A stretch of DNA of 64,000 nt, from contig JAZDOE010000018.1 of NCBI GenBank assembly GCA_043798985.1, forward strand, positions 8,057 to 72,056, in the 5' to 3' direction. The notes below the pieces were generated by a model that saw only the letters and a list, made by a program, of their open reading frames with translations, was not told the origin of the DNA and did no database searches. The stretch's first letter is position 1; each line of letters opens with the position of its first letter. The position numbers were made by a program, and so were the translations under genes. Of the stretch, positions 3,205 to 54,865 are shown piece by piece. This stretch comes from Candidatus Falkowbacteria bacterium (GTDB lineage: Bacteria; Patescibacteriota; Patescibacteriia; UBA11705; JACRDX01).

Positions 3205-3981
3205 CTACTTTCCAACGCGGAGCCGCTCTGCGAAGCCCATCGGCAATCCGCGCGCTCGCATGTGTTGAACCGTGGCTTCCACGTCGTACTCAACGCGGCA
3301 AAACCGCAAGGTGCGTTTTTCCGGCGCTTCCAAATCCAGAATCACGAAGCTCGCGCGCGGGTCTCTATCTCTTGGCTGGCCCACGCTTCCGACGTTGACT
3401 AAATAGCGGCAGTCTGGATTTAATGAGATTGAACACTCTGCGAGGCGCTTTTTTGGAGAATCCGGTCGTTTTACTCGTTTGCCGGTCTGCAAATTCCACG
3501 CGTGAAAACCAAGAATGTGCGTATGGCCAAGCATGATGAGTTGGTGGTCGGTTTGTGTCAATTGAAGTTCTGATTCTTTTTCGTACGGAAACACGTATGG
3601 CCATCGTTCAAGACTGCGCACGCAACTGTGGCTGGAAAAGAAAATTCCGTTCTGCTGGCGCCGTGGCAGTTTTTCAAGCATGCGTAGCGCAGTGCCAGAG
3701 AATTCGTTTTTTGTAAAAACAATCATCCTTGCGACGGCTGATTCGTTATCTGCAAGTTTGTCCATGTTTGCTCTGCAAATCGCTGCTTCATGGTTGCCAA
3801 GAAGCATGATTGCGCCATTGCCGGTCAAGGTTTCCACGACTTCTTTTGGCCATGGTCCATAGCCAATCGCGTCGCCCAGCGAAATCAGCACATCAACTCC
3901 GCAGTTTTGTTGCATGTACTCAATGCACGCATTCAGGGCAAGCAAGTTGCCATGAATATCAGCCAGAAAACCGTATCGCAT
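3205..3981 (-). CDS. Metallophosphoesterase (calcineurin-like phosphoesterase)
   Basis: MRYGFLADIHGN...GDAIGYGPWP...GNHE carries the D-x-H, GD and GNHE metal-ligand motifs. Confidence 0.75.
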   Translation of the reverse strand: MRYGFLADIHGNLLALNACIEYMQQNCGVDVLISLGDAIGYGPWPKEVVETLTGNGAIMLLGNHEAAICRANMDKLADNESAVARMIVFTKNEFSGTALRMLEKLPRRQQNGIFFSSHSCVRSLERWPYVFPYEKESELQLTQTDHQLIMLGHTHILGFHAWNLQTGKRVKRPDSPKKRLAECSISLNPDCRYLVNVGSVGQPRDRDPRASFVILDLEAPEKRTLRFCRVEYDVEATVQHMRARGLPMGFAERLRVGK

Positions 3982-5938: not shown

Positions 5939-7240
5939 ATGGGGTTTGGAATTTTGAAAAATAAATTTATTCAGAATAGTTTTATTTATGTGGCAGGAAC
6001 AATTGCCGCGGGATTTTTGGGTTATATTTTTCAATTTGTCATTTCGCGAAAATTATCAGTCGCGCAATACGGCGAATTCCAAAGTTTAATGGCTGCGTCA
6101 GCGATTTTCGGCATCGTAAGTTCCGCTATAAGTTATTTTGTAATAAAATACAGTTCGGTTTTCGCGAAAAATAATGATTACGCAAGCAACAATTCTTTTT
6201 TAAAATTGACAAACGCGAAAATGCGAAAGCTGGCGATCTTGTTGGTCGTCGGTTTTTTGTTATTGTCGCCGATTTTGAAAAATTATTTACGGCTTGATGA
6301 TTATTATGGATTGATTTTGGTCGCGCTGACGTTATACGTTGGTTTAATAACAACCGGATACACGGCAACGCTTTCCGGCTGGCAAATGTTCGCGATTTCC
6401 AGTGGAATTGGAATATTTTTTGGGATTTTAAAGTTGTTGGCCGGTATAATTGGCACGCAACTTAGCCCAACGTCAACGAGCATTTTGTTTTTTCTGTTGA
6501 TTTTTAGCGGAATATCGGCGTTTGTTAGCTATTGGGTTGTTCGACAAAAATTTTACAACAAAACAACTGTAGAGACGGGATATATCCCGTCTCTACAATG
6601 GAAACAAAAATATTTCGCGACGCTTGATGTTGGCAAAAGTATATTGCCAATTACATTGTTCGCGTTGGCTGTCGCGCTTTTGCAAAACATTGATTTGCTG
6701 ATTGTTAAAAATTTGACCACCGCGGAAATCGCCGGGCAATATGCCGCGCTTAACGTTTTAGGAAAAATAATTTTTTGGATAAATGGCGCGATTATCGCGG
6801 TGGTTTTGCCAACCGCCTGCGCGACTGGAATTGATGGCAACCGGCCAAGCCGAAAATTGGCATTTAGCGCTTATGGGCTTATTGGATTTGTAAGTTTGTG
6901 CGGCATTGCCGCTTATTTCATCGCGCCGAACTTTATTGTTTCATTGTTGTTCGGCGCGAAATATTTAATCTTTGCAAAAGAACTTTGGCTGTTTGGTGTA
7001 ATGGCATTTGCTTTGTCAATTTTAATGTTAGAAGCGAATTTCGCTTACGCGCGTCATGATTTTCGCGTTAATTACATTATTGGCAGCGTTGTTCTGATGA
7101 TGATTATCGGAATTTACGGTTGGCACGCTACAATTCAGATTGTTGTTTTGGATATTATTGTCGCGATGCTGTTGGGTTTTATCGGCATGATAATTTTGAA
7201 TAATTGTCAAACAAAAAACATTGCAAAAACGGTTGTATAA
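5939..7240 (+). CDS. Polysaccharide biosynthesis protein / Wzx-like oligosaccharide flippase (polytopic)
   Basis: 433 aa and about 12 predicted TM helices, matching MOP/Wzx topology. Located at the head of the glycosyltransferase island. Confidence 0.55.
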   Translation: MGFGILKNKFIQNSFIYVAGTIAAGFLGYIFQFVISRKLSVAQYGEFQSLMAASAIFGIVSSAISYFVIKYSSVFAKNNDYASNNSFLKLTNAKMRKLAILLVVGFLLLSPILKNYLRLDDYYGLILVALTLYVGLITTGYTATLSGWQMFAISSGIGIFFGILKLLAGIIGTQLSPTSTSILFFLLIFSGISAFVSYWVVRQKFYNKTTVETGYIPSLQWKQKYFATLDVGKSILPITLFALAVALLQNIDLLIVKNLTTAEIAGQYAALNVLGKIIFWINGAIIAVVLPTACATGIDGNRPSRKLAFSAYGLIGFVSLCGIAAYFIAPNFIVSLLFGAKYLIFAKELWLFGVMAFALSILMLEANFAYARHDFRVNYIIGSVVLMMIIGIYGWHATIQIVVLDIIVAMLLGFIGMIILNNCQTKNIAKTVV

Positions 7241-7255
7241 GCATAAGATGGCAGT

Positions 7256-8203
7256 ATGATAAAAAAGATTTCAATTGTTGTGCCTGTTTATAACGAGGAA
7301 GCAAATGTTCAGATGCTTTATGATTCATTGATTAAATTGTTGCGCCCGCTTTTGACCAAGTATGATCATGAATTGATTTTTGTGGATGATGGCAGCGATG
7401 ATGGCAGCGCTAAAGTTATTGAGACGTTCAGCCAGCAAGATGCGCGAGTTAAGTGCATTGAATTTTCAAGGAATTTTGGCAAAGAAGCCGCGACAACTGC
7501 CGGAATAAATAATGCGACTGGCGACGCGGTTTTGTTGATTGACGCTGATTTGCAACATCCCGTGGAAAAAGTTTCAGAATTTTTGTCAAAGTGGGAAGCT
7601 GGCGCTGAAATCGTAATCGGAATCCGCGAGAAAAATCAAAAAGAAGGGTTGGTTAAATGGTTTGGTTCAATTGTTTTTCATAAATTAATGCAATGGATTG
7701 GTGAGACGAAAATAATTCCACGCGAAACAGATTTTCGTTTGTTGGATCGCAAAGTTGTTGATGAATTTAATAAATTGACAGAACGAAATCGAATGACGCG
7801 CGGGTTGATTGATTGGTTGGGATTTCGGCGAGATTATGTTTATTTTATCGCGAACCCGCGCTCTGCGGGCAAGGCTGGTTATGGTTTTTTGAAACTGACT
7901 CGGCTGGCATTCACCAGCTTTGTAAGTTATAGTTTGCTGCCCTTAAAATTGGCCGGATATTTGGGAATTTTTATTACATTAATTTCTGGTAGCCTCGGTT
8001 TATTTGTGTTTATTGAACGATATTTGCTGAACGATCCATGGAAATTGGAAATTCGCGGAACTGCGATTTTGGCGATAATAATTATGTTTTTGGTCGGCAT
8101 CATATTGATTTGTTTGGGGTTGATTGCTTTGTACATTGCCAATATTCACGGCGAAGTCAGCCGCCGGCCGATGTATATTCTCCGTAAAAAAAGTATTGAT
8201 TGA
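7256..8203 (+). CDS. GT2 polyprenol-phosphate glycosyltransferase (ArnC/GtrB/DPM1-like)
   Basis: N-terminal GT2 domain (IVVPVYNEEANV, DDGSDDGS, DADLQH) plus two C-terminal TM helices, typical of the ArnC/GtrB architecture. Confidence 0.75.
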   Translation: MIKKISIVVPVYNEEANVQMLYDSLIKLLRPLLTKYDHELIFVDDGSDDGSAKVIETFSQQDARVKCIEFSRNFGKEAATTAGINNATGDAVLLIDADLQHPVEKVSEFLSKWEAGAEIVIGIREKNQKEGLVKWFGSIVFHKLMQWIGETKIIPRETDFRLLDRKVVDEFNKLTERNRMTRGLIDWLGFRRDYVYFIANPRSAGKAGYGFLKLTRLAFTSFVSYSLLPLKLAGYLGIFITLISGSLGLFVFIERYLLNDPWKLEIRGTAILAIIIMFLVGIILICLGLIALYIANIHGEVSRRPMYILRKKSID

Positions 8204-39363: not shown

Positions 39364-40830
39364 ATGGCTGAAAAAATAAAAGCTATTTTGAAAGATGAAC
39401 GGAAAGTAAGCAAAGCGCTATTTATCGCGATTTTAGTTTTCGCGATGGTCGTGATTTTTGACTTGCCTGCGCTTTTTACTGCATATGCTACTCAAAATTC
39501 TGAAAATGGCTGGGGGTATGGAAGTCCTGTCGGATATGCTTGGGGTTATGGTTACTGGTCTGAGGTAACCCCAACGTTGGCGCTAACCTATAATAGCTGC
39601 GCGGCAGATTGTCAAATTGCGAGAAACACGGCAATTACTATTACTGCGACATTCAGTTCTTCTCCTGCAACGCAACCAGACATCAGCATAGATCTTCCTG
39701 GCACAACTTATGACACCGCATATACTGCTATGAGCGGAAGTGGGGCGGTAAGAACGTATAGCTATACAACGGCGAGTGTTTCCGCGACTTCCACGGCTAC
39801 CGTAAGCATACAGACCGCTGGTGGTGCGGCGCACACCCCGACCCCATCAAACAGCACGCTTAGCATCACTGTTCCCGGAGGTGAAAGTGGCGGCGCGACA
39901 GTGACAGATACAACTGCCCCAACGATTAGCAGTGTTGTAGCAACGCCAAAAGCAACAGAAGCGACGATTACATGGACGACAAACGAAGCTTCTGTGACTT
40001 GGATTGATTACGGAACAACAACCACTTATGGTAAACAGACGCTTACAAGCGCTTTTGTCACTGCTCACTCTGTCACTTTGACTGGCTTGACCGCAGGGAC
40101 AACGTATCACTACAAATTAAGTGCGAAAGATGTTTCTTCAAACTTAAATGTTGGCAGTGATGCTACGTTCAAAACTTTGACGGTCGCGGAAGAAGTGAAG
40201 AAGGCAGAAGATGCTAAGAAAGCGGAGGAAGCCAAAAAAGCAGAAGTGGTAAAAGAAGAAGTAAAGAAAGAAGAAACAAAAGCTATTACCCCGGTGACGA
40301 CCGTTGTTGAACCACAAAAGCCAGCAAAGCAAGATGTTGCTAAAGAAAAAGATGGCTTAATCTTTTATATCAAGACCACAAAAGCATTGCCTACAAAGAG
40401 CGCTGACTGGAAAGTCGTACACTTTGTCGCGTATGGCACTAGCAATACTGTAAAATTGGCTGCCGCGGAAAGAAAAGACATGCTGACTGATTACAAAGCG
40501 ATTTATGGCAAAGTGCCAGCAACTACTGGCGATTGGTCAAATGTTGATTCAATGGCAACGGGCGTAAAACCAGCGACAAGATCTTTGGTAGCTGAAAAAG
40601 CAGCGTTTAAAGATTTTATAAAGGTCTATAAACGTGTACCAAACTTCAAGGTTGCGGGTGATAATATGGGCTTGCAGTATATCGCGTATAAGTTGCGACC
40701 AGCGGTGAAAGATGCGGCAAAAGAAAAAGCTGCGACAGCAACGTTTAAGGCAATTTACAAAGTTACGCCAAAGACTTCTGCGCAAATGGCAGTTGTTAGA
40801 GCGATTGCTTACTCTGGAGCAAAACGATAA
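39364..40830 (+). CDS. Cell-surface protein with N-terminal anchor, Thr/Ser-rich region, fibronectin-III-like domain, Lys/Glu-rich repeats (KAEDAKKAEEAKKAE) and a C-terminal domain
   Basis: N-terminal TM/signal segment. ITWTTNEASVTWIDYGTTTTYG...TTYHYKLSAKD is Fn3/PKD-like. Low-complexity charged repeats. Confidence 0.5.
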   Translation: MAEKIKAILKDERKVSKALFIAILVFAMVVIFDLPALFTAYATQNSENGWGYGSPVGYAWGYGYWSEVTPTLALTYNSCAADCQIARNTAITITATFSSSPATQPDISIDLPGTTYDTAYTAMSGSGAVRTYSYTTASVSATSTATVSIQTAGGAAHTPTPSNSTLSITVPGGESGGATVTDTTAPTISSVVATPKATEATITWTTNEASVTWIDYGTTTTYGKQTLTSAFVTAHSVTLTGLTAGTTYHYKLSAKDVSSNLNVGSDATFKTLTVAEEVKKAEDAKKAEEAKKAEVVKEEVKKEETKAITPVTTVVEPQKPAKQDVAKEKDGLIFYIKTTKALPTKSADWKVVHFVAYGTSNTVKLAAAERKDMLTDYKAIYGKVPATTGDWSNVDSMATGVKPATRSLVAEKAAFKDFIKVYKRVPNFKVAGDNMGLQYIAYKLRPAVKDAAKEKAATATFKAIYKVTPKTSAQMAVVRAIAYSGAKR

Positions 40831-49319: not shown

Positions 49320-49394
49320 GCCGGGTTCGTCTAGTGGTTAGGACATTAGGTTCTCAACCTAAGAACACGGGTTCGATTCCCGTACCCGGTACCA
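49320..49394 (+). tRNA. trnE: tRNA-Glu (anticodon CTC)
   Basis: Manual cloverleaf. Acceptor GCCGGGT/ACCCGGT. D-stem GTCT/GGAC. Anticodon stem TTAGG/CCTAA with loop TTCTCAA. T-arm ACGGG-TTCGATT-CCCGT. Discriminator A followed by an encoded CCA. Confidence 0.85.
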
Positions 49395-49403
49395 AATGGG
49401 TTC

Positions 49404-49434
49404 TCGCCCTTCGGGCGACCACCCGCAGGGTGGG
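49404..49434 (+). other. Two tandem GC-rich hairpins immediately 3' of tRNA-Glu
   Basis: TCGCCC-TTC-GGGCGA (49404-49418) and CCACCC-GCA-GGGTGG (49419-49433). The same GC-hairpin style as the intragenic palindromes. Confidence 0.5.
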
Positions 49435-49460
49435 ACACCCCTTGGCGGTACCAAAAATAC

Positions 49461-49485
49461 AGAAATCTCATCGGTTTCTTTTTTT
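49461..49485 (+). terminator. Rho-independent terminator downstream of tRNA-Glu
   Basis: AGAAATC-TCATC-GGTTTCT stem followed by TTTTTT. Confidence 0.45.
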
Positions 49486-49575
49486 GTTAGTTTAGGCTAA
49501 TTTTGCTTATTTTTTTATTAAGCTTGCTATATTTTTATAATTATGCTAAGTTGAATTGTTCTTCACTAGAACTGT

Positions 49576-49594
49576 TGTTTGGATATTCCAAACA
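49576..49594. promoter_or_regulatory. Palindromic operator-like site TGTTTGGA-TAT-TCCAAACA upstream of the first island gene
   Basis: Perfect 8-bp inverted repeat, 34-52 nt upstream of the ATG at 49628, which has an AGGGGG RBS. Confidence 0.35.
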
Positions 49595-49627
49595 GCAAAA
49601 GCTCTTTTGACAGCAAGGGGGATAGAG

Positions 49628-50164
49628 ATGGAAAAGCTTGACTTCACGCAAGTCGAAATCGGCCACTGGTCAGTGAAAGTGGATCTTGATGTTGCAATGG
49701 CTCACTTCGCATTTCTCACCGAGACTTTGCAGTGGGTGCAAAAACACGGACAGGAGATGATAGCAAGGCTGGCGAATCTCAGCTATGAAGAGTGGATAGC
49801 GCTTCTTGAGAAGGCCGTTTATCTGTGGCGAGACATTCCCAGATCACGTTCTGTCAGTGCGTTTTTCGTCGCAGTTATTGAGCGAGGCATCACTGACTTG
49901 ATTCCTCTCGCAGTTTCTAAGAATAACGAAGCGCTGGCAACAGCGTGGTTCCACTCGATTGCTTATCAGCTTCAACCAGGTGCGAGACTTGGCATCGGAG
50001 CAGATACTTGCGGCGATGATAAGAGTCGGGAGCTCATTGAGCGCCTTGCTCGCGTCGCGCAAATACTCACGGCCGAACATCTCCTTGAAAGCTTGTCATC
50101 AAGTCGTTGCCCCGGAGATAGTTCTGCGCAGAAGCTTTTTGTCAAGCACTTCACGAATTGGTAG
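49628..50164 (+). CDS. Hypothetical protein encoded in the GC-rich insert
   Basis: ORF with a strong RBS (AAGGGGGATAGAG-ATG). GC about 50-55%, against about 35% for the flanks. No recognisable motif. Confidence 0.4.
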   Translation: MEKLDFTQVEIGHWSVKVDLDVAMAHFAFLTETLQWVQKHGQEMIARLANLSYEEWIALLEKAVYLWRDIPRSRSVSAFFVAVIERGITDLIPLAVSKNNEALATAWFHSIAYQLQPGARLGIGADTCGDDKSRELIERLARVAQILTAEHLLESLSSSRCPGDSSAQKLFVKHFTNW

Positions 50165-50189
50165 TTGACTCGCTAACGCGCAATTCTAA

Positions 50190-50227
50190 CCCCTTGCGGA
50201 CAAACCGTCTGCGAGGGGATTTTTTTG
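50190..50227 (+). terminator. Rho-independent terminator
   Basis: CCCCTTGCGGAC-AAACC-GTCTGCGAGGGG (12-bp stem including two G-U pairs) followed by ATTTTTTT. Confidence 0.55.
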
Positions 50228-50332
50228 GTTATTGACTTTTAATAAAAAACGTGCAAATATTATTACAGATTCAGCGGAAATACCGCGGAACCTTAACAAC
50301 CTCAGATTGTCCCATGGGGACAGGAGGGTCGC

Positions 50333-51097
50333 ATGAGAAAGGATGGAGCGTTCAGGGCATTGCTTGACTTTGCCAGAGAGAACCCTGATTGTCTTAGCAA
50401 TCAAGTCGATGAAATGGCCGAGGCAATCATCATTGCGCTTGCTGATGGAGGAATGCATCCTCGCCAGCTTTTCGCTCGCGTATTGAATTCTACTGATCCG
50501 AACTTTCTTTTCGCTGTCGTGTACAACAAACTGGCGCAAGACGAAGCCAAACGGCTGGAACTTCTTGACGCGGTAGTGACCGCAGATGAAATGATTTGGC
50601 ACGACGCAATTCTCAACGCCAAAACCGTGGCAAACAAGTTCGCGCGCGCGGAAGACTTTGAACACCTGCTCAAAAATCACCGCGACGCGCTCTTGTATCA
50701 GCGCGACGAACGTCCGTTGTTCTTGTTTGTTCCCTCCGATGAATACTGGCGCAAACGTGTGCGGTGGTACATTGCGAAGAGAGATTGGCGGCGCGCGTGG
50801 GACGAATTCCGCAAGGCGCGCCGCGGATTTTTCAACGGACCGAAAGAAGAAGCCCCGCGGTTTGGGAAGATTGACATGACGTGGTATTGCTACGAAGCTT
50901 CGAAGGAGACGCTTGTCGCACTGATACGCGAGCTTTTCAATGGCATGGTCTCTCGTGGCGTCTTTGCGAAGCTCATCGATTCAGAGTGCGTCCCCAGCGT
51001 TGAAGGTGCGATGGCTATCAAGCTTACCGAATACTTCCGCGAACAGCGCAACGCGCAGCGCCGGAAGAAGTGGGACGTAGCGCGGCGCAAGGTGTAG
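50333..51097 (+). CDS. Hypothetical Arg/Ala-rich protein encoded in the GC-rich insert
   Basis: 254-aa ORF with a GGAGGG RBS and high GC. The overlapping minus-strand 164-aa ORF is judged an antisense artefact. Confidence 0.45.
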   Translation: MRKDGAFRALLDFARENPDCLSNQVDEMAEAIIIALADGGMHPRQLFARVLNSTDPNFLFAVVYNKLAQDEAKRLELLDAVVTADEMIWHDAILNAKTVANKFARAEDFEHLLKNHRDALLYQRDERPLFLFVPSDEYWRKRVRWYIAKRDWRRAWDEFRKARRGFFNGPKEEAPRFGKIDMTWYCYEASKETLVALIRELFNGMVSRGVFAKLIDSECVPSVEGAMAIKLTEYFREQRNAQRRKKWDVARRKV

Positions 51098-51120
51098 TCC
51101 GCGGACTGTGACCAACAAGG

Positions 51121-51148
51121 AGAGAGCTAAAAGTTCTCTCCGTTTTTT
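51121..51148 (+). terminator. Rho-independent terminator closing the GC-rich insert
   Basis: GGAGAGA-GCTAAAAGT-TCTCTCC followed by GTTTTTTTT. Confidence 0.6.
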
Positions 51149-51206
51149 TTAACAAACATTAACATTTCATTTTGGGGATAGTTGTGATATTATATGTCTA
51201 TAAAAT

Positions 51207-52355
51207 ATGAAAATAGCAATCAATCTTACGCGAGAAAGCGTTGGTGGCATCACATGGTCTAACATTAATTTGATTAACCATTTGTATGGTTTGGATTACG
51301 AATTCGTTGGTTTGGAATTAAACGGCAGGATGTACATGAAAGGTCCGTCTCTGTTTAGAAATTTTTCGCCTGAAATTTTTGAACATCATATTATTAACAT
51401 TCATCACTTACCGCTGATTGGCATTTTAGACAAAGCCAAAAATATTAAAGACGTTGAAGCCGCCTATAAAGAGCCGATAAAAATTATCAGGAATGTTTTG
51501 AGAGAAACAAAACCAGACATCATTTTATTAAGCGGCACATACTATATTCCTTGGCTCATATCAATAGCCGCAAAACTGGAAAAAATCCCTGTTGTATTGT
51601 GGTATTCCGGAGTCCTATCCAGAGAAACTGAAAGCCAGCCCGATCACAGAAAAAGGCTTTTCTCTGCAATGGAAAAAAGCCTTGCGTCTCGGGTGGCCAG
51701 AATTGTTTTCCCCTCACGACTCTGCAAAGATGTCGTAGAAAAGGAAGTTGTGAAACACAAAATCAAAAACAGTTACATTATACCAAACCCGGTTTCAAGC
51801 ATTTTTACAGAACATTGCGCCGTAGAATATTCGCTTGTGCGCAGAATCGCGGCGGTTGGCCGTTATTCAAAGGTAAAAAATTTTGATTCATTTTTCGCGT
51901 TGCACAAAGAACTTTTGCGACGCAAATGGCGGCATAGCGCCTGTTTCGTCACCAATCCTGATGCGCGCATTAAAAAACTTCCAAAGGCAATTGAAGTTCT
52001 TCCGCCAATGACCCCTGATGGTTTAAAAAAATTTTATATTTCTCAAGGTTTAATAGTTTGTCCATCAACATTTGAAACTTTCGGGAATGTTCCGATGGAA
52101 GCCGCTTGTCTCGGCGTTCCAGTATTGGTGAGCGACAAAATGGGCTGCGCGGAAATACTAAAAAAAGTTGGTCTTGAAAACATGGTAATATCATTTGATG
52201 ATATTGGCAAAGTGGCTGACCGCGCGCAACAGTTATGCGGTCAATCAATACTGCCCCAACAATTAAATGCGCTTAAAAGAATCTTAGATAACCATTTAAT
52301 AAGCGAAGAAATTAATGCTGTACTGCTCAATGTAATCAAGCGCTCCGTGAATTGA
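51207..52355 (+). CDS. Glycosyltransferase family 1 (GT4)
   Basis: C-terminal FETFGNVPMEAACLGVPVLVSD. The N-terminal half is GT4-like. Confidence 0.6.
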   Translation: MKIAINLTRESVGGITWSNINLINHLYGLDYEFVGLELNGRMYMKGPSLFRNFSPEIFEHHIINIHHLPLIGILDKAKNIKDVEAAYKEPIKIIRNVLRETKPDIILLSGTYYIPWLISIAAKLEKIPVVLWYSGVLSRETESQPDHRKRLFSAMEKSLASRVARIVFPSRLCKDVVEKEVVKHKIKNSYIIPNPVSSIFTEHCAVEYSLVRRIAAVGRYSKVKNFDSFFALHKELLRRKWRHSACFVTNPDARIKKLPKAIEVLPPMTPDGLKKFYISQGLIVCPSTFETFGNVPMEAACLGVPVLVSDKMGCAEILKKVGLENMVISFDDIGKVADRAQQLCGQSILPQQLNALKRILDNHLISEEINAVLLNVIKRSVN

Positions 52356-52621
52356 CTTTGCGTTGTTAGCGCGCTATACTGAACTAAGATAAATAACTAA
52401 AATTTATGTTTGGATTTTTTGAAAAACAAGCTACTGAAAAGGCGGGGTTCACGAGTCAAGAAAGCGCAAGATTAAAAGAGAGTTGTAAAACGCCAGAGCA
52501 AACAACTACTGCCGAACTTTTTGGCGCAAGCTCCGAGTTCCTAGAGAAACGCTTACGCGCTTAATTTAATATTTGCAGATTCGTAACATTTGTAAGATTC
52601 GTAGGTTCGTAGCCATAACTT

Positions 52622-53651: not shown

Positions 53652-53702
53652 ACTTATTTTATTTGCGGCGATGTTGTAAATTTGTTATACTGGCATAACA
53701 AC

Positions 53703-54865
53703 ATGGCACTAATATCCATTGAAAAAATGCCAGATTTGAATAGCCGAATTGTTTTAGTTCGCTGCGATTTTAATATCAACCTAACTGCTAAAAAACAACT
53801 ATTGGACACGACAAAAATAATTCGCAGCTACAAAACAATAAATTATTTATTGAACAAAGGCGCGAAAGTTGTTATCATTTCGCACCTTGGCAGACCAACG
53901 CGAAAAGATGCAAAGCTTTCGTTGCGGCCGATTTATAATTTTCTTAAAAAAGATTTTCCAACGGCAAGGTTTATTGAACGATCTGTTTTAACAATCAGCG
54001 AAAAACCTGTAAATGGCGATTTATTTTTGCTGGAAAACATTCGTTTTTACAAAGGCGAATGGAAAATGACGCAAAATTCGCGAAGCATCTTGCCACATTG
54101 GCGGATTTTTACGTGAATGAAGCATTTAGCGCGTCGCACAGAAAACACGCTTCGCTCGCGGCAATCACAAAATATCTAAAACCATTTCATGGTTTTAATT
54201 TTATTGAAGAAGTTTCAACGTTAAAAAATCTGAAAATTAAAAAGCCAGCGCTGCTCATTCTCGGCGGGCTGAAAGTTGATGACAAATTGCCAATGATAGA
54301 AAAATTGGCGCCAAAATTTTCAAATATTTTACTTGCTGGTGGATGCTCGTTTTTATTTTATAAAAAATTAGGAATTAACGTTGGCGCATCCAAAATTGAT
54401 AAAGCAGCGCTGGCCTGCCTCGCCGGCGGGCAGGCTTCAACGTCGCTGCGACGTTTGTTAAAAAATAAAAAGATATTATTGCCGATTGATTTGATTGTCG
54501 CGAACGCGAAGACGCTGAAGAAGGCTAGGAATGTAGCTTGTAGCAGGGTAGGTTGTGGGATAGAAAAAGGTGAAGCGATTTTTGATGTTGGCCCTCGCAC
54601 AATTTTAAAATGGTCAGAACTTATAAAAAAAGCGCGGACAATAATCTGGCTCGGGCCAGTTGGTTATGTTGATCACAAACAATTCAGTCACGCGAGCGCG
54701 ATGCTGGCGAAAATTATTGGCAGCCGCGCGAGCGGACGAGCCGTTGGAATCGTTGGCGGCGGAGAAACATTGTATTCGGTGAACAAATCCGGCATGGCAA
54801 AATATTTTGATTACATTTCAACCGGCGGCGGCGCTACTTTAAAATTTTTGAGTGAAAAGGAGTGA
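53703..54865 (+). CDS. pgk: Phosphoglycerate kinase, split into two ORFs by an apparent -1 frameshift at about 54059-54062
   Basis: ORF 53682-54116 carries VLVRCDFN, ISHLGRP and LLENIRFYKGE. ORF 54059-54865 carries MENDAKFAKHLATLADFYVNEAFSASHR and GGLKVDDKL. Joining them with a -1 shift restores a collinear Pgk. Confidence 0.75.

Follow-up and report, generated by a model that had tools for sequence, protein, structure and literature searches.

A small, compositionally atypical gene islet beside tRNA-Glu(CTC) in Candidatus Falkowbacteria, made of two probably horizontally acquired single-gene units

Genomic islands associated with tRNA genes, such as the P4-like and integrative and conjugative element types, lie directly 3' of a tRNA gene, are atypical in guanine-plus-cytosine (GC) content, vary in content among relatives, have a partial copy of the tRNA 3' end nearby, and carry cargo of unknown function. 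These features are shared by a short segment in a 64,000-nucleotide stretch of DNA (hereafter the window; contig JAZDOE010000018.1 of assembly GCA_043798985.1) from a groundwater Candidatus Falkowbacteria bacterium of the Candidate Phyla Radiation (CPR)/Patescibacteria, in which two open reading frames (ORF1 and ORF2) follow a tRNA-Glu(CTC) gene. The locus differs from such islands in having no integrase and no bracketing direct repeats, in a tRNA fragment situated 2 nt from the tRNA instead of distally, and in an extent of only ~1.7 kb (~3 kb with the neighboring glycosyltransferase gene). Because a sister species has part of the same structure, the locus is better seen as an old fixed remnant or a hotspot than as an active element. 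Phage morons are also autonomous promoter-gene-terminator units with a composition unlike the surrounding DNA, whereas the islet is not inside a prophage and has no viral relatives by sequence or fold. A further parallel concerns the mRNA leader of ORF2, which resembles the leaders that sequester the Shine-Dalgarno (SD) site in ribosomal-protein mRNAs, translational riboswitches, RNA thermometers, and inert type I toxin mRNAs in its conserved hairpin that pairs CCUC with the SD core GAGG, in an upstream helix with covariation, and in traveling with its gene across genomes. It differs from them in belonging to no Rfam family, in its seven examples, and in preceding a ~250-aa basic helical protein instead of a ribosomal protein or small toxin.

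The segment is interpreted as a small and old islet of accessory genes in a recombination hotspot beside tRNA-Glu(CTC), composed of two independent and probably horizontally acquired single-gene units, a reading to which we assign a probability of roughly 0.62. Horizontal acquisition is favored because the segment is a compositional outlier, the interval that contains it is variable among relatives, and the members of both protein families are scattered in unrelated contexts. The stretch 49395-51150 has a GC content of 49.7% compared to 39.1% for the window and is the most GC-rich of its 1.75-kb segments. A ranking of the 58 non-overlapping ORFs of at least 90 aa, with this one 64-kb window as the background, placed ORF2 first (53.6% GC, z = 4.5; GC at third codon positions (GC3) 62% vs. 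39% in the background, z = 5.3) and ORF1 third (50.3% GC, z = 3.1; GC3 z = 2.6). An earlier interpretation of the window made from the letters only (the sequence-only reading) had proposed a horizontally acquired, GC-rich insert; the composition, the variable interval, and the scattered relatives support that proposal and the GC excess is real, but the figures of about 55% GC in a 35% background were overstated.

NCBI lists the exact ORF1 and ORF2 proteins as hypothetical and assigns them to a Candidatus Falkowbacteria metagenome-assembled genome (MAG). Each ORF is equipped with a sigma-70-type promoter with an extended -10 element, a structured 5' untranslated region (UTR), a strong SD site, and an intrinsic terminator (Table 1), and the two are predicted to be separate monocistronic transcription units. 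The first gene starts 234 nt 3' of the tRNA, and the 168-nt gap between the ORFs contains a strong terminator and a separate promoter, both predicted from the sequence. The first promoter lies in a 41-nt block that is 83% identical to positions 149-189 of the sister contig L001 (locus numbers are our own), while at the position of the ORF1 5'-UTR hairpins the sequence is not conserved and the sister forms another hairpin. The hairpin type of the ORF2 terminator is found in two copies in the sister islet with compensatory changes in the stem. Several claims of the sequence-only reading were borne out, namely the two ORFs with their SD sites AGGGGG and GGAGGG, one intrinsic terminator for each (50190-50218 and 51119-51141, each followed by a T-run), and the lack of an integrase. 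Between the tRNA and the small ORF sm52 only ORF1, ORF2, and a gene of the GT4 glycosyltransferase family were identified, none of them integrase- or recombinase-like, and as no mobility gene is left the islet is considered fixed.

Comparative analysis identified the murF-tRNA-Glu(CTC) linkage in seven related loci of Falkowbacteria and relatives (L007-L010, L012, L016, and L025), and the right side of the interval is a conserved small-ORF pair (sm52 and sm91) followed by lexA. In the more distant L008, L009, and L010, both ORF1 and ORF2 are missing from the interval up to sm91-lexA, which spans 1.4-8.6 kb and is filled with unrelated genes, several of them GC-rich. L008 has a methyltransferase and a major-vault-protein-like gene rich in GC there, L009 codes for a DEAD/ResIII helicase and a JAB-like protein, and L010 contains an ORF of 59% GC. 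The tRNA-Glu to lexA interval, whose cargo is different in each of the relatives, is thus a variable hotspot with ongoing turnover. The vault-like gene of L008 (13339-16677; 52% GC) codes for a 908-aa protein with MVP_shoulder and Vault_3 domains and is preceded by a 139-aa GC-rich ORF.

The sister species genome (GCA_016212745.1) is represented by contigs L007, on the murF side, and L001. Its MurF and FtsI are 86 and 90% identical to the window proteins and its flanking core genes show 80-86% DNA and 86-94% protein identity. From murF by way of the tRNA and the tRNA relic described below to the first promoter, the sister follows the layout of the window, and it has an ORF2 homologue in the same place (55% protein and 68% DNA identity) with the promoter, leader, and terminator hairpin 83-92% conserved. 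It lacks ORF1, having unrelated 75-aa and 118-aa ORFs instead, and it lacks the GT4 gene (tblastn against L001), the terminator with the TAAAA loop being followed directly by the sm52 promoter. Relative to the sister, the GT4 gene is an indel whose limits coincide with the ORF2 terminator on one side and the sm52 promoter on the other, which makes it one more variable cassette in the tRNA-Glu to lexA interval. The comparison of related genomes at this tRNA-Glu, which the sequence-only reading had proposed, returned loci without both genes (L008-L010) or without ORF1 (the sister) but not without the ORF2 unit in the sister. As that unit is shared by the two species, its acquisition would predate their split; ORF1 and the neighboring glycosyltransferase gene would have arrived later or been lost in the sister, and the interval would continue to turn over by insertion, deletion, and insertion sequence (IS) activity. 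Allelic replacement between the conserved leader and terminator (cassette swapping) was considered for the 55% ORF2 identity and was not adopted, given that the neighboring small ORFs are also fast-evolving. An IS is found in the sister just upstream of the islet promoter (L007 4897-5025 and L001 1-95, both on the minus strand) and is called only probable because the Pfam match of the transposase C-terminus is weak (rve_2, E = 0.11). The helix-turn-helix-like N-terminal start is on the other contig; the element split the assembly, with the transposase ends running off two contig ends.

The two proteins are predicted to be unrelated, all-helical, and cytoplasmic, and their families appear patchy and mostly confined to CPR-like genomes. 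A profile-profile alignment of the ORF1 and ORF2 families with hhalign indicated no relationship. The absence of recognizable domains noted in the sequence-only reading was upheld, as neither protein, nor any member of the two family alignments, had a significant match in Pfam, NCBIfam, PADLOC, or PHROGs (best PADLOC E-value 0.024 with no passing stretch; best PHROG E-values 0.086 and 0.15). A sequence-profile search of the PDB with both proteins gave noise only (e.g., TetR at E 0.46), and the 2.9 M contigs of IMG/VR yielded neither relatives of the two families nor the leader pattern.

ORF1 encodes an acidic protein of 178 aa (pI 5.9) with a conserved C-terminal KNW. It looked like an orphan in a word-indexed search, while an exhaustive HMMER search of 1.84 billion representatives revealed a family of at least 55 clusters, with 55 representatives retrieved (36 at E ≤ 1e-10) and members of ~180 aa. 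AlphaFold2 with the family alignment predicted a seven-helix bundle at a predicted local distance difference test score (pLDDT) of 97.3, and Foldseek searches of the PDB and BFVD with this model retrieved only generic helical repeats (E > 0.1). The family genes are standalone and their settings vary: a Y1 transposase adjoins one, an rve transposase and a sigma factor are in the vicinity of another, and further neighbors are divergently oriented TrmB regulators, cohesin-domain proteins, and glycosyltransferases; the family also occurs in Taylorbacteria. The divergent TrmB regulator adjoins two of about nine members and is not general, and locus L056 lies among toxin-antitoxin genes (PIN/MazE and Phd). 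Searches for a conserved partner that compared the family neighbors with ORF2, the GT4 gene, and the small ORFs of the sister gave no match. ORF1 and ORF2 co-occurred in none of six further ORF2-family loci and in none of nine further distinct ORF1-family loci. In the Taylorbacteria locus L061 (350-1740) the ORF1-family gene is situated ~750 nt from a convergent tRNA-Glu(TTC), and two other members are within 1-3 kb of tRNA genes, which may hint that the family tends toward tRNA-linked variable regions.

ORF2 encodes a basic protein of 254 aa (pI 9.2) with the conserved motifs RAEDFEHLL and YWRKRVRWYIxKxDxRRAWDE. Its predicted structure is all-helical (pLDDT 83.8, AlphaFold2 with a four-sequence alignment) and matched only generic helical repeats in the PDB by Foldseek (E > 0.1). 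The family is very rare, with seven known loci in about six genomic contexts: two in the context shared by the window and the sister, two (L003 and L005) adjoining pnp and a 401-aa ORF, one (L006) flanked by ligA and gatC, one (L059) located upstream of nusA, and L060. A metagenome scan with the leader pattern added only two new loci. The family member in L059 (304-1296) has an in-frame TAG at codon 96 with homology continuing beyond it, which may be a pseudogene, a sequencing error, or recoding. A non-coding block of ~570 nt is 89% identical between L003 (~6900-7470) and L005 (~1283-1860), whereas the adjacent ORF2 homologues are only 50% identical; its minus-strand end is a hairpin with U8, its fold z-score is -4.3, and no Rfam match was found at E ≤ 1. 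This block could be an undescribed large structured RNA.

All seven ORF2-family loci have the 5' leader, in the order -35 element, helix P1, conserved linker, and helix P2. The -35 element is TTGACT in five loci (including the window, L003, L005, and L059), TTGACA in L060, and TTGATT in L006. P1, with the core GCGG/CCGC in the window, varies in sequence while its pairing is kept (GCGG/CCGC, UACGGA/UCCGUA, UGCGGA/UCCGCA, UGCAGA/UCUGCG, and GGCGGA/UCCGCC). P2 of the window consists of CCUC, an AGA bulge, UUGUCCC-AUG-GGGACAG, and GAGG; it has the family form CCUC-[AGA]-UUGUCCC-NNN-GGGACAG-GAGG, in which the final GAGG is the SD core, and the pairing of CCUC (50300-50303) with the SD GAGG (50324-50327) is found in all seven leaders. 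RNAfold recovered P2 in six of the seven full leaders and both helices in all seven when folded separately, with P2 energies of -12.6 kcal/mol in five of the seven, -14.6 in L006, and -5.0 in L001. In alignment A7 (n = 7) 91.4% of the cells were paired compared to 42-57% in slid controls. Two-sided changes occur at five P1 pairs, and none of 500 shuffles reached the observed covariation score. P2 is 98-100% paired, and its changes, including those of the divergent sister copy, are one-sided and wobble-compatible only. The leader had no match to Rfam 15 at the gathering thresholds and none overlapping it at E ≤ 5, and the motif occurs once in the window.

The sequence-only reading had described the palindromes ahead of both ORFs as operator-like sites. 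Both palindromes are present (49573-49597 and 50307-50323), but that before ORF2, which the sequence-only reading placed at 50306-50320, makes up the inner stem of P2 and is better explained as an RNA hairpin sequestering the SD site, because in the sister the DNA palindrome of P2 is degraded and the RNA pairing persists via G·U pairs. In the sister, the 118-aa ORF stands between the leader and the ORF2 homologue, which is 13 nt behind that ORF, and the leader would therefore still govern ORF2. The P2 helix, by pairing CCUC with the SD, may keep ORF2 translation off by default, and a trans-acting factor recognizing the invariant linker and the bulge could relieve or maintain this repression. 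The most economical candidate is the basic ORF2 protein itself, since only ORF2 always travels with the leader; this would amount to autogenous control. A bolder proposal, which we regard as doubtful, is that the ORF2 family and its leader move horizontally as a self-contained single-gene module confined to CPR-like bacteria. ORF2 would then be an RNA-binding self-repressor acting via a new SD-sequestering motif (P1, ACCUUnAnAA linker, and CCUC[AGA]UUGUCCC-NNN-GGGACAGGAGG), and in Falkowbacteria the module would land in the tRNA-Glu to lexA interval.

The tRNA-Glu flank and the GC-rich structured piece directly behind it were recognized in the sequence-only reading and were confirmed (ARAGORN and Rfam), the piece at 49395-49451 having 68% GC and folding at -31 kcal/mol (z = -2.9). 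The proposed repeat of the tRNA 3' end is also real, although the second copy of CGGTACCA is at 49446-49453 and not at 49444-49451 and it does not delimit the insert. The bare 8-mer is within chance (at least two copies in 10 of 100 shuffles), and the 28 nt ending at the second copy are 71% identical to the tRNA 3' end. The repeat is considered meaningful because the homologous piece of the sister is a recognizable tRNA 3' half: in L007 (4763-4811), after a short spacer behind tRNA-Glu, CATGGTTCTCAACCATG-GAATA-GGGGTTCGACACCCC-TTGGCGGTACCA still has a CTC anticodon arm together with the T arm, the acceptor 3' strand, and CCA. In the window the anticodon arm of the relic is replaced by GC hairpins while the T-arm-like hairpin and the acceptor strand are retained; the tRNA-Glu(CTC) of the Falkowbacteria locus L009 has exactly this strand, TGGCGGTACCA, at its 3' end. 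The relic begins 2 nt after the tRNA, upstream of ORF1 and ORF2, and does not bracket them, and the far-boundary check that had been proposed found no attachment site or direct repeat at 51100-52400 or elsewhere in the window with three mismatches allowed. The relic is thus best read as the scar of a past recombination or duplication at tRNA-Glu and not as the boundary of the present insert, and it may at present contribute to termination or processing of the tRNA transcript. The terminator proposed after the tRNA is present as a weak AT-rich hairpin and U-run by RNA folding but was missed by the consensus terminator scan. An intron-split or second functional tRNA was rejected for the relic, as pairing of its acceptor strand to the resident 5' strand is not possible and it was called by neither ARAGORN nor Rfam. 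Another Falkowbacteria contig (L010, 11787-11910) has two to three tandem copies of a ~45-nt unit (GAGCTTCGGCTGGCACGGCCAGTACTATAGCTTTTTAAAT) directly after tRNA-Glu(CTC).

Several points count against the proposed acquisition of the islet. The islet has neither an integrase nor a far-end repeat or attachment site that would indicate a mechanism or direction of transfer, and no close donor is known, the nearest relative of ORF1 being 46% identical and the nearest of ORF2 outside the sister 50% identical. Both families are GC-rich nearly everywhere, and the excess could be intrinsic instead of marking a donor; the synteny of the ORF2 unit in two species would also fit a fast-evolving vertical gene; and the neighboring small ORFs likewise have only 72% DNA identity to the sister. 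For the leader, the analysis comprises only seven sequences and the covariation support is limited, and the autoregulation by ORF2 is pure inference. The main rival explanation, unlikely in our judgment, is that ORF1 and ORF2 are native, vertically inherited, and fast-evolving lineage-specific genes whose GC richness is intrinsic to their families, through constraints on amino acids or on mRNA structure. The synteny of ORF2 with its promoter, leader, and terminator in the sister is in line with this, as are the lack of mobility genes and flanking repeats, the rapid divergence of the adjacent small ORFs, and the 8-11 GC points by which the genes of both families exceed their surroundings in most loci, whatever the host. 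Vertical descent is harder to reconcile with the distant Falkowbacteria that retain the murF-tRNA-Glu…sm91-lexA synteny with other cargo and without both genes, with the absence of ORF1 from the sister, and with at least six unrelated contexts for each of the two families, some of them beside transposases. The excess is also strongest at third codon positions, which argues against amino-acid composition alone.

The remaining explanations concern the nature and the reality of the insert. A remnant of a prophage or integrative element, with phage-derived morons left after integration at tRNA-Glu and decay, would account for the adjoining tRNA with its 3'-half relic, the self-contained promoter-to-terminator units, and the atypical composition. 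We consider it improbable in view of the negative IMG/VR search for both families and the leader, the lack of a significant PHROG match and of a BFVD fold match for ORF1, and the position of the relic on the tRNA side of the genes and not at the far end. In addition, no integrase or phage gene was identified at the locus in the window or the sister (L001/L007), nor in the variable intervals of L008-L010 as sampled with Pfam. The sequence-only reading had offered a toxin-antitoxin, defense, or phage-derived pair, and a two-gene functional module of the toxin-antitoxin or anti-phage type is suggested by two adjacent small genes on the same strand in a variable region by a tRNA, by an SD-sequestering hairpin that gates ORF2 as in some toxin mRNAs, and by ORF1-family loci among toxin-antitoxin genes such as L056. 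Such a pair is nevertheless highly unlikely, since the families were never together at any other locus examined, the gap between the two genes contains an intrinsic terminator and a second promoter, the sister has ORF2 without ORF1, PADLOC gave no significant match, and the profile-profile comparison revealed no relationship between the proteins; the PHROGs, IMG/VR, and BFVD results also speak against the phage-derived variant. A chimera of assembly or binning comes to mind as the source of the GC-rich segment, given a MAG with an abrupt shift in composition, and is hardly credible here: core genes adjoin the segment without a break on either side in a 72-kb contig, the order ORF2 homologue-sm52-sm91-lexA-pgk recurs in an independent MAG (L001) and an independent Logan assembly (L002), and the promoter, leader, and terminator are conserved between both genomes. 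Horizontal acquisition into a tRNA-linked hotspot is the preferred interpretation of the islet.

Table 1. Features of the tRNA-Glu(CTC)-linked islet and its right neighbor, in window coordinates.
Feature	Position	Strand	Description and basis
tRNA-Glu(CTC), encoded CCA	49320..49394	+	ARAGORN; Rfam tRNA model, 66.6 bits
Decayed 3' half of a second tRNA-Glu(CTC)	49397..49453	+	T-arm-like hairpin and acceptor 3' strand TGGCGGT-A-CCA
Weak AT-rich hairpin and U-run after tRNA/relic	49461..49485	+	Terminator-like by RNA fold
Promoter, first unit	49524..49552	+	-35 TTGCTA, 17-nt spacer, extended -10 TGC-TAAGTT; read from the sequence
ORF1 5'-UTR hairpins	49558..49597	+	Include an 11-bp palindrome; RNA fold z = -2.5
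ORF1	49628..50164	+	178 aa, SD AGGGGG
ORF1 intrinsic terminator	50190..50226	+	12-bp GC-rich stem and T7; terminator scan; fold z = -4.95
ORF2-unit promoter	50232..50260	+	-35 TTGACT, 17-nt spacer, TGc-AAATAT; promoter scan
ORF2-family 5' leader	50270..50327	+	P1 50270-50290, conserved linker, P2 50300-50327
ORF2	50333..51097	+	254 aa, SD GGAGGG
ORF2 intrinsic terminator	51119..51150	+	GGAGAGAGC-TAAAA-GTTCTCTCC and T8; fold z = -4.3
GT4-family glycosyltransferase cassette	51160..52360 (gene 51207-52355)	+	39.7% GC, host-like; NCBIfam glycosyltransferase matches

Elsewhere in the window, the second strongest GC outlier is a 258-aa metallophosphoesterase-like ORF (3205-3981, minus strand; 51% GC, z = 3.7) that may be another acquired gene. 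A 488-aa ORF (39364-40830) is GC-rich in its 5' part (51% at 39501-40000) and has 45% GC as a whole. The phosphoglycerate kinase gene (53682-54865) looks frameshifted, with overlapping ORFs in different frames (53682-54116 and 54059-54865) compared to a single 387-aa protein in the sister genome, and reflects either a sequencing or assembly error or a pseudogene.

The locus is of an ordinary kind for a genomic islet, with the leader motif and the two unannotated families as its only potentially new parts; it overturns nothing and its contribution is incremental. To our knowledge, the mobile and accessory DNA of the ultra-small CPR/Patescibacteria genomes is poorly charted, and the analysis documents a tRNA-Glu-linked hotspot with cargo turnover between close Falkowbacteria. 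It also adds two uncharacterized protein families, that of ORF1 having a very confidently predicted fold that Foldseek left unmatched in the PDB and BFVD. The compact and conserved SD-sequestering leader is a candidate new regulatory RNA and, if the proposal of a mobile, self-repressing ORF2 module were true, it would represent a new class of cis-regulatory RNA together with a new protein family.

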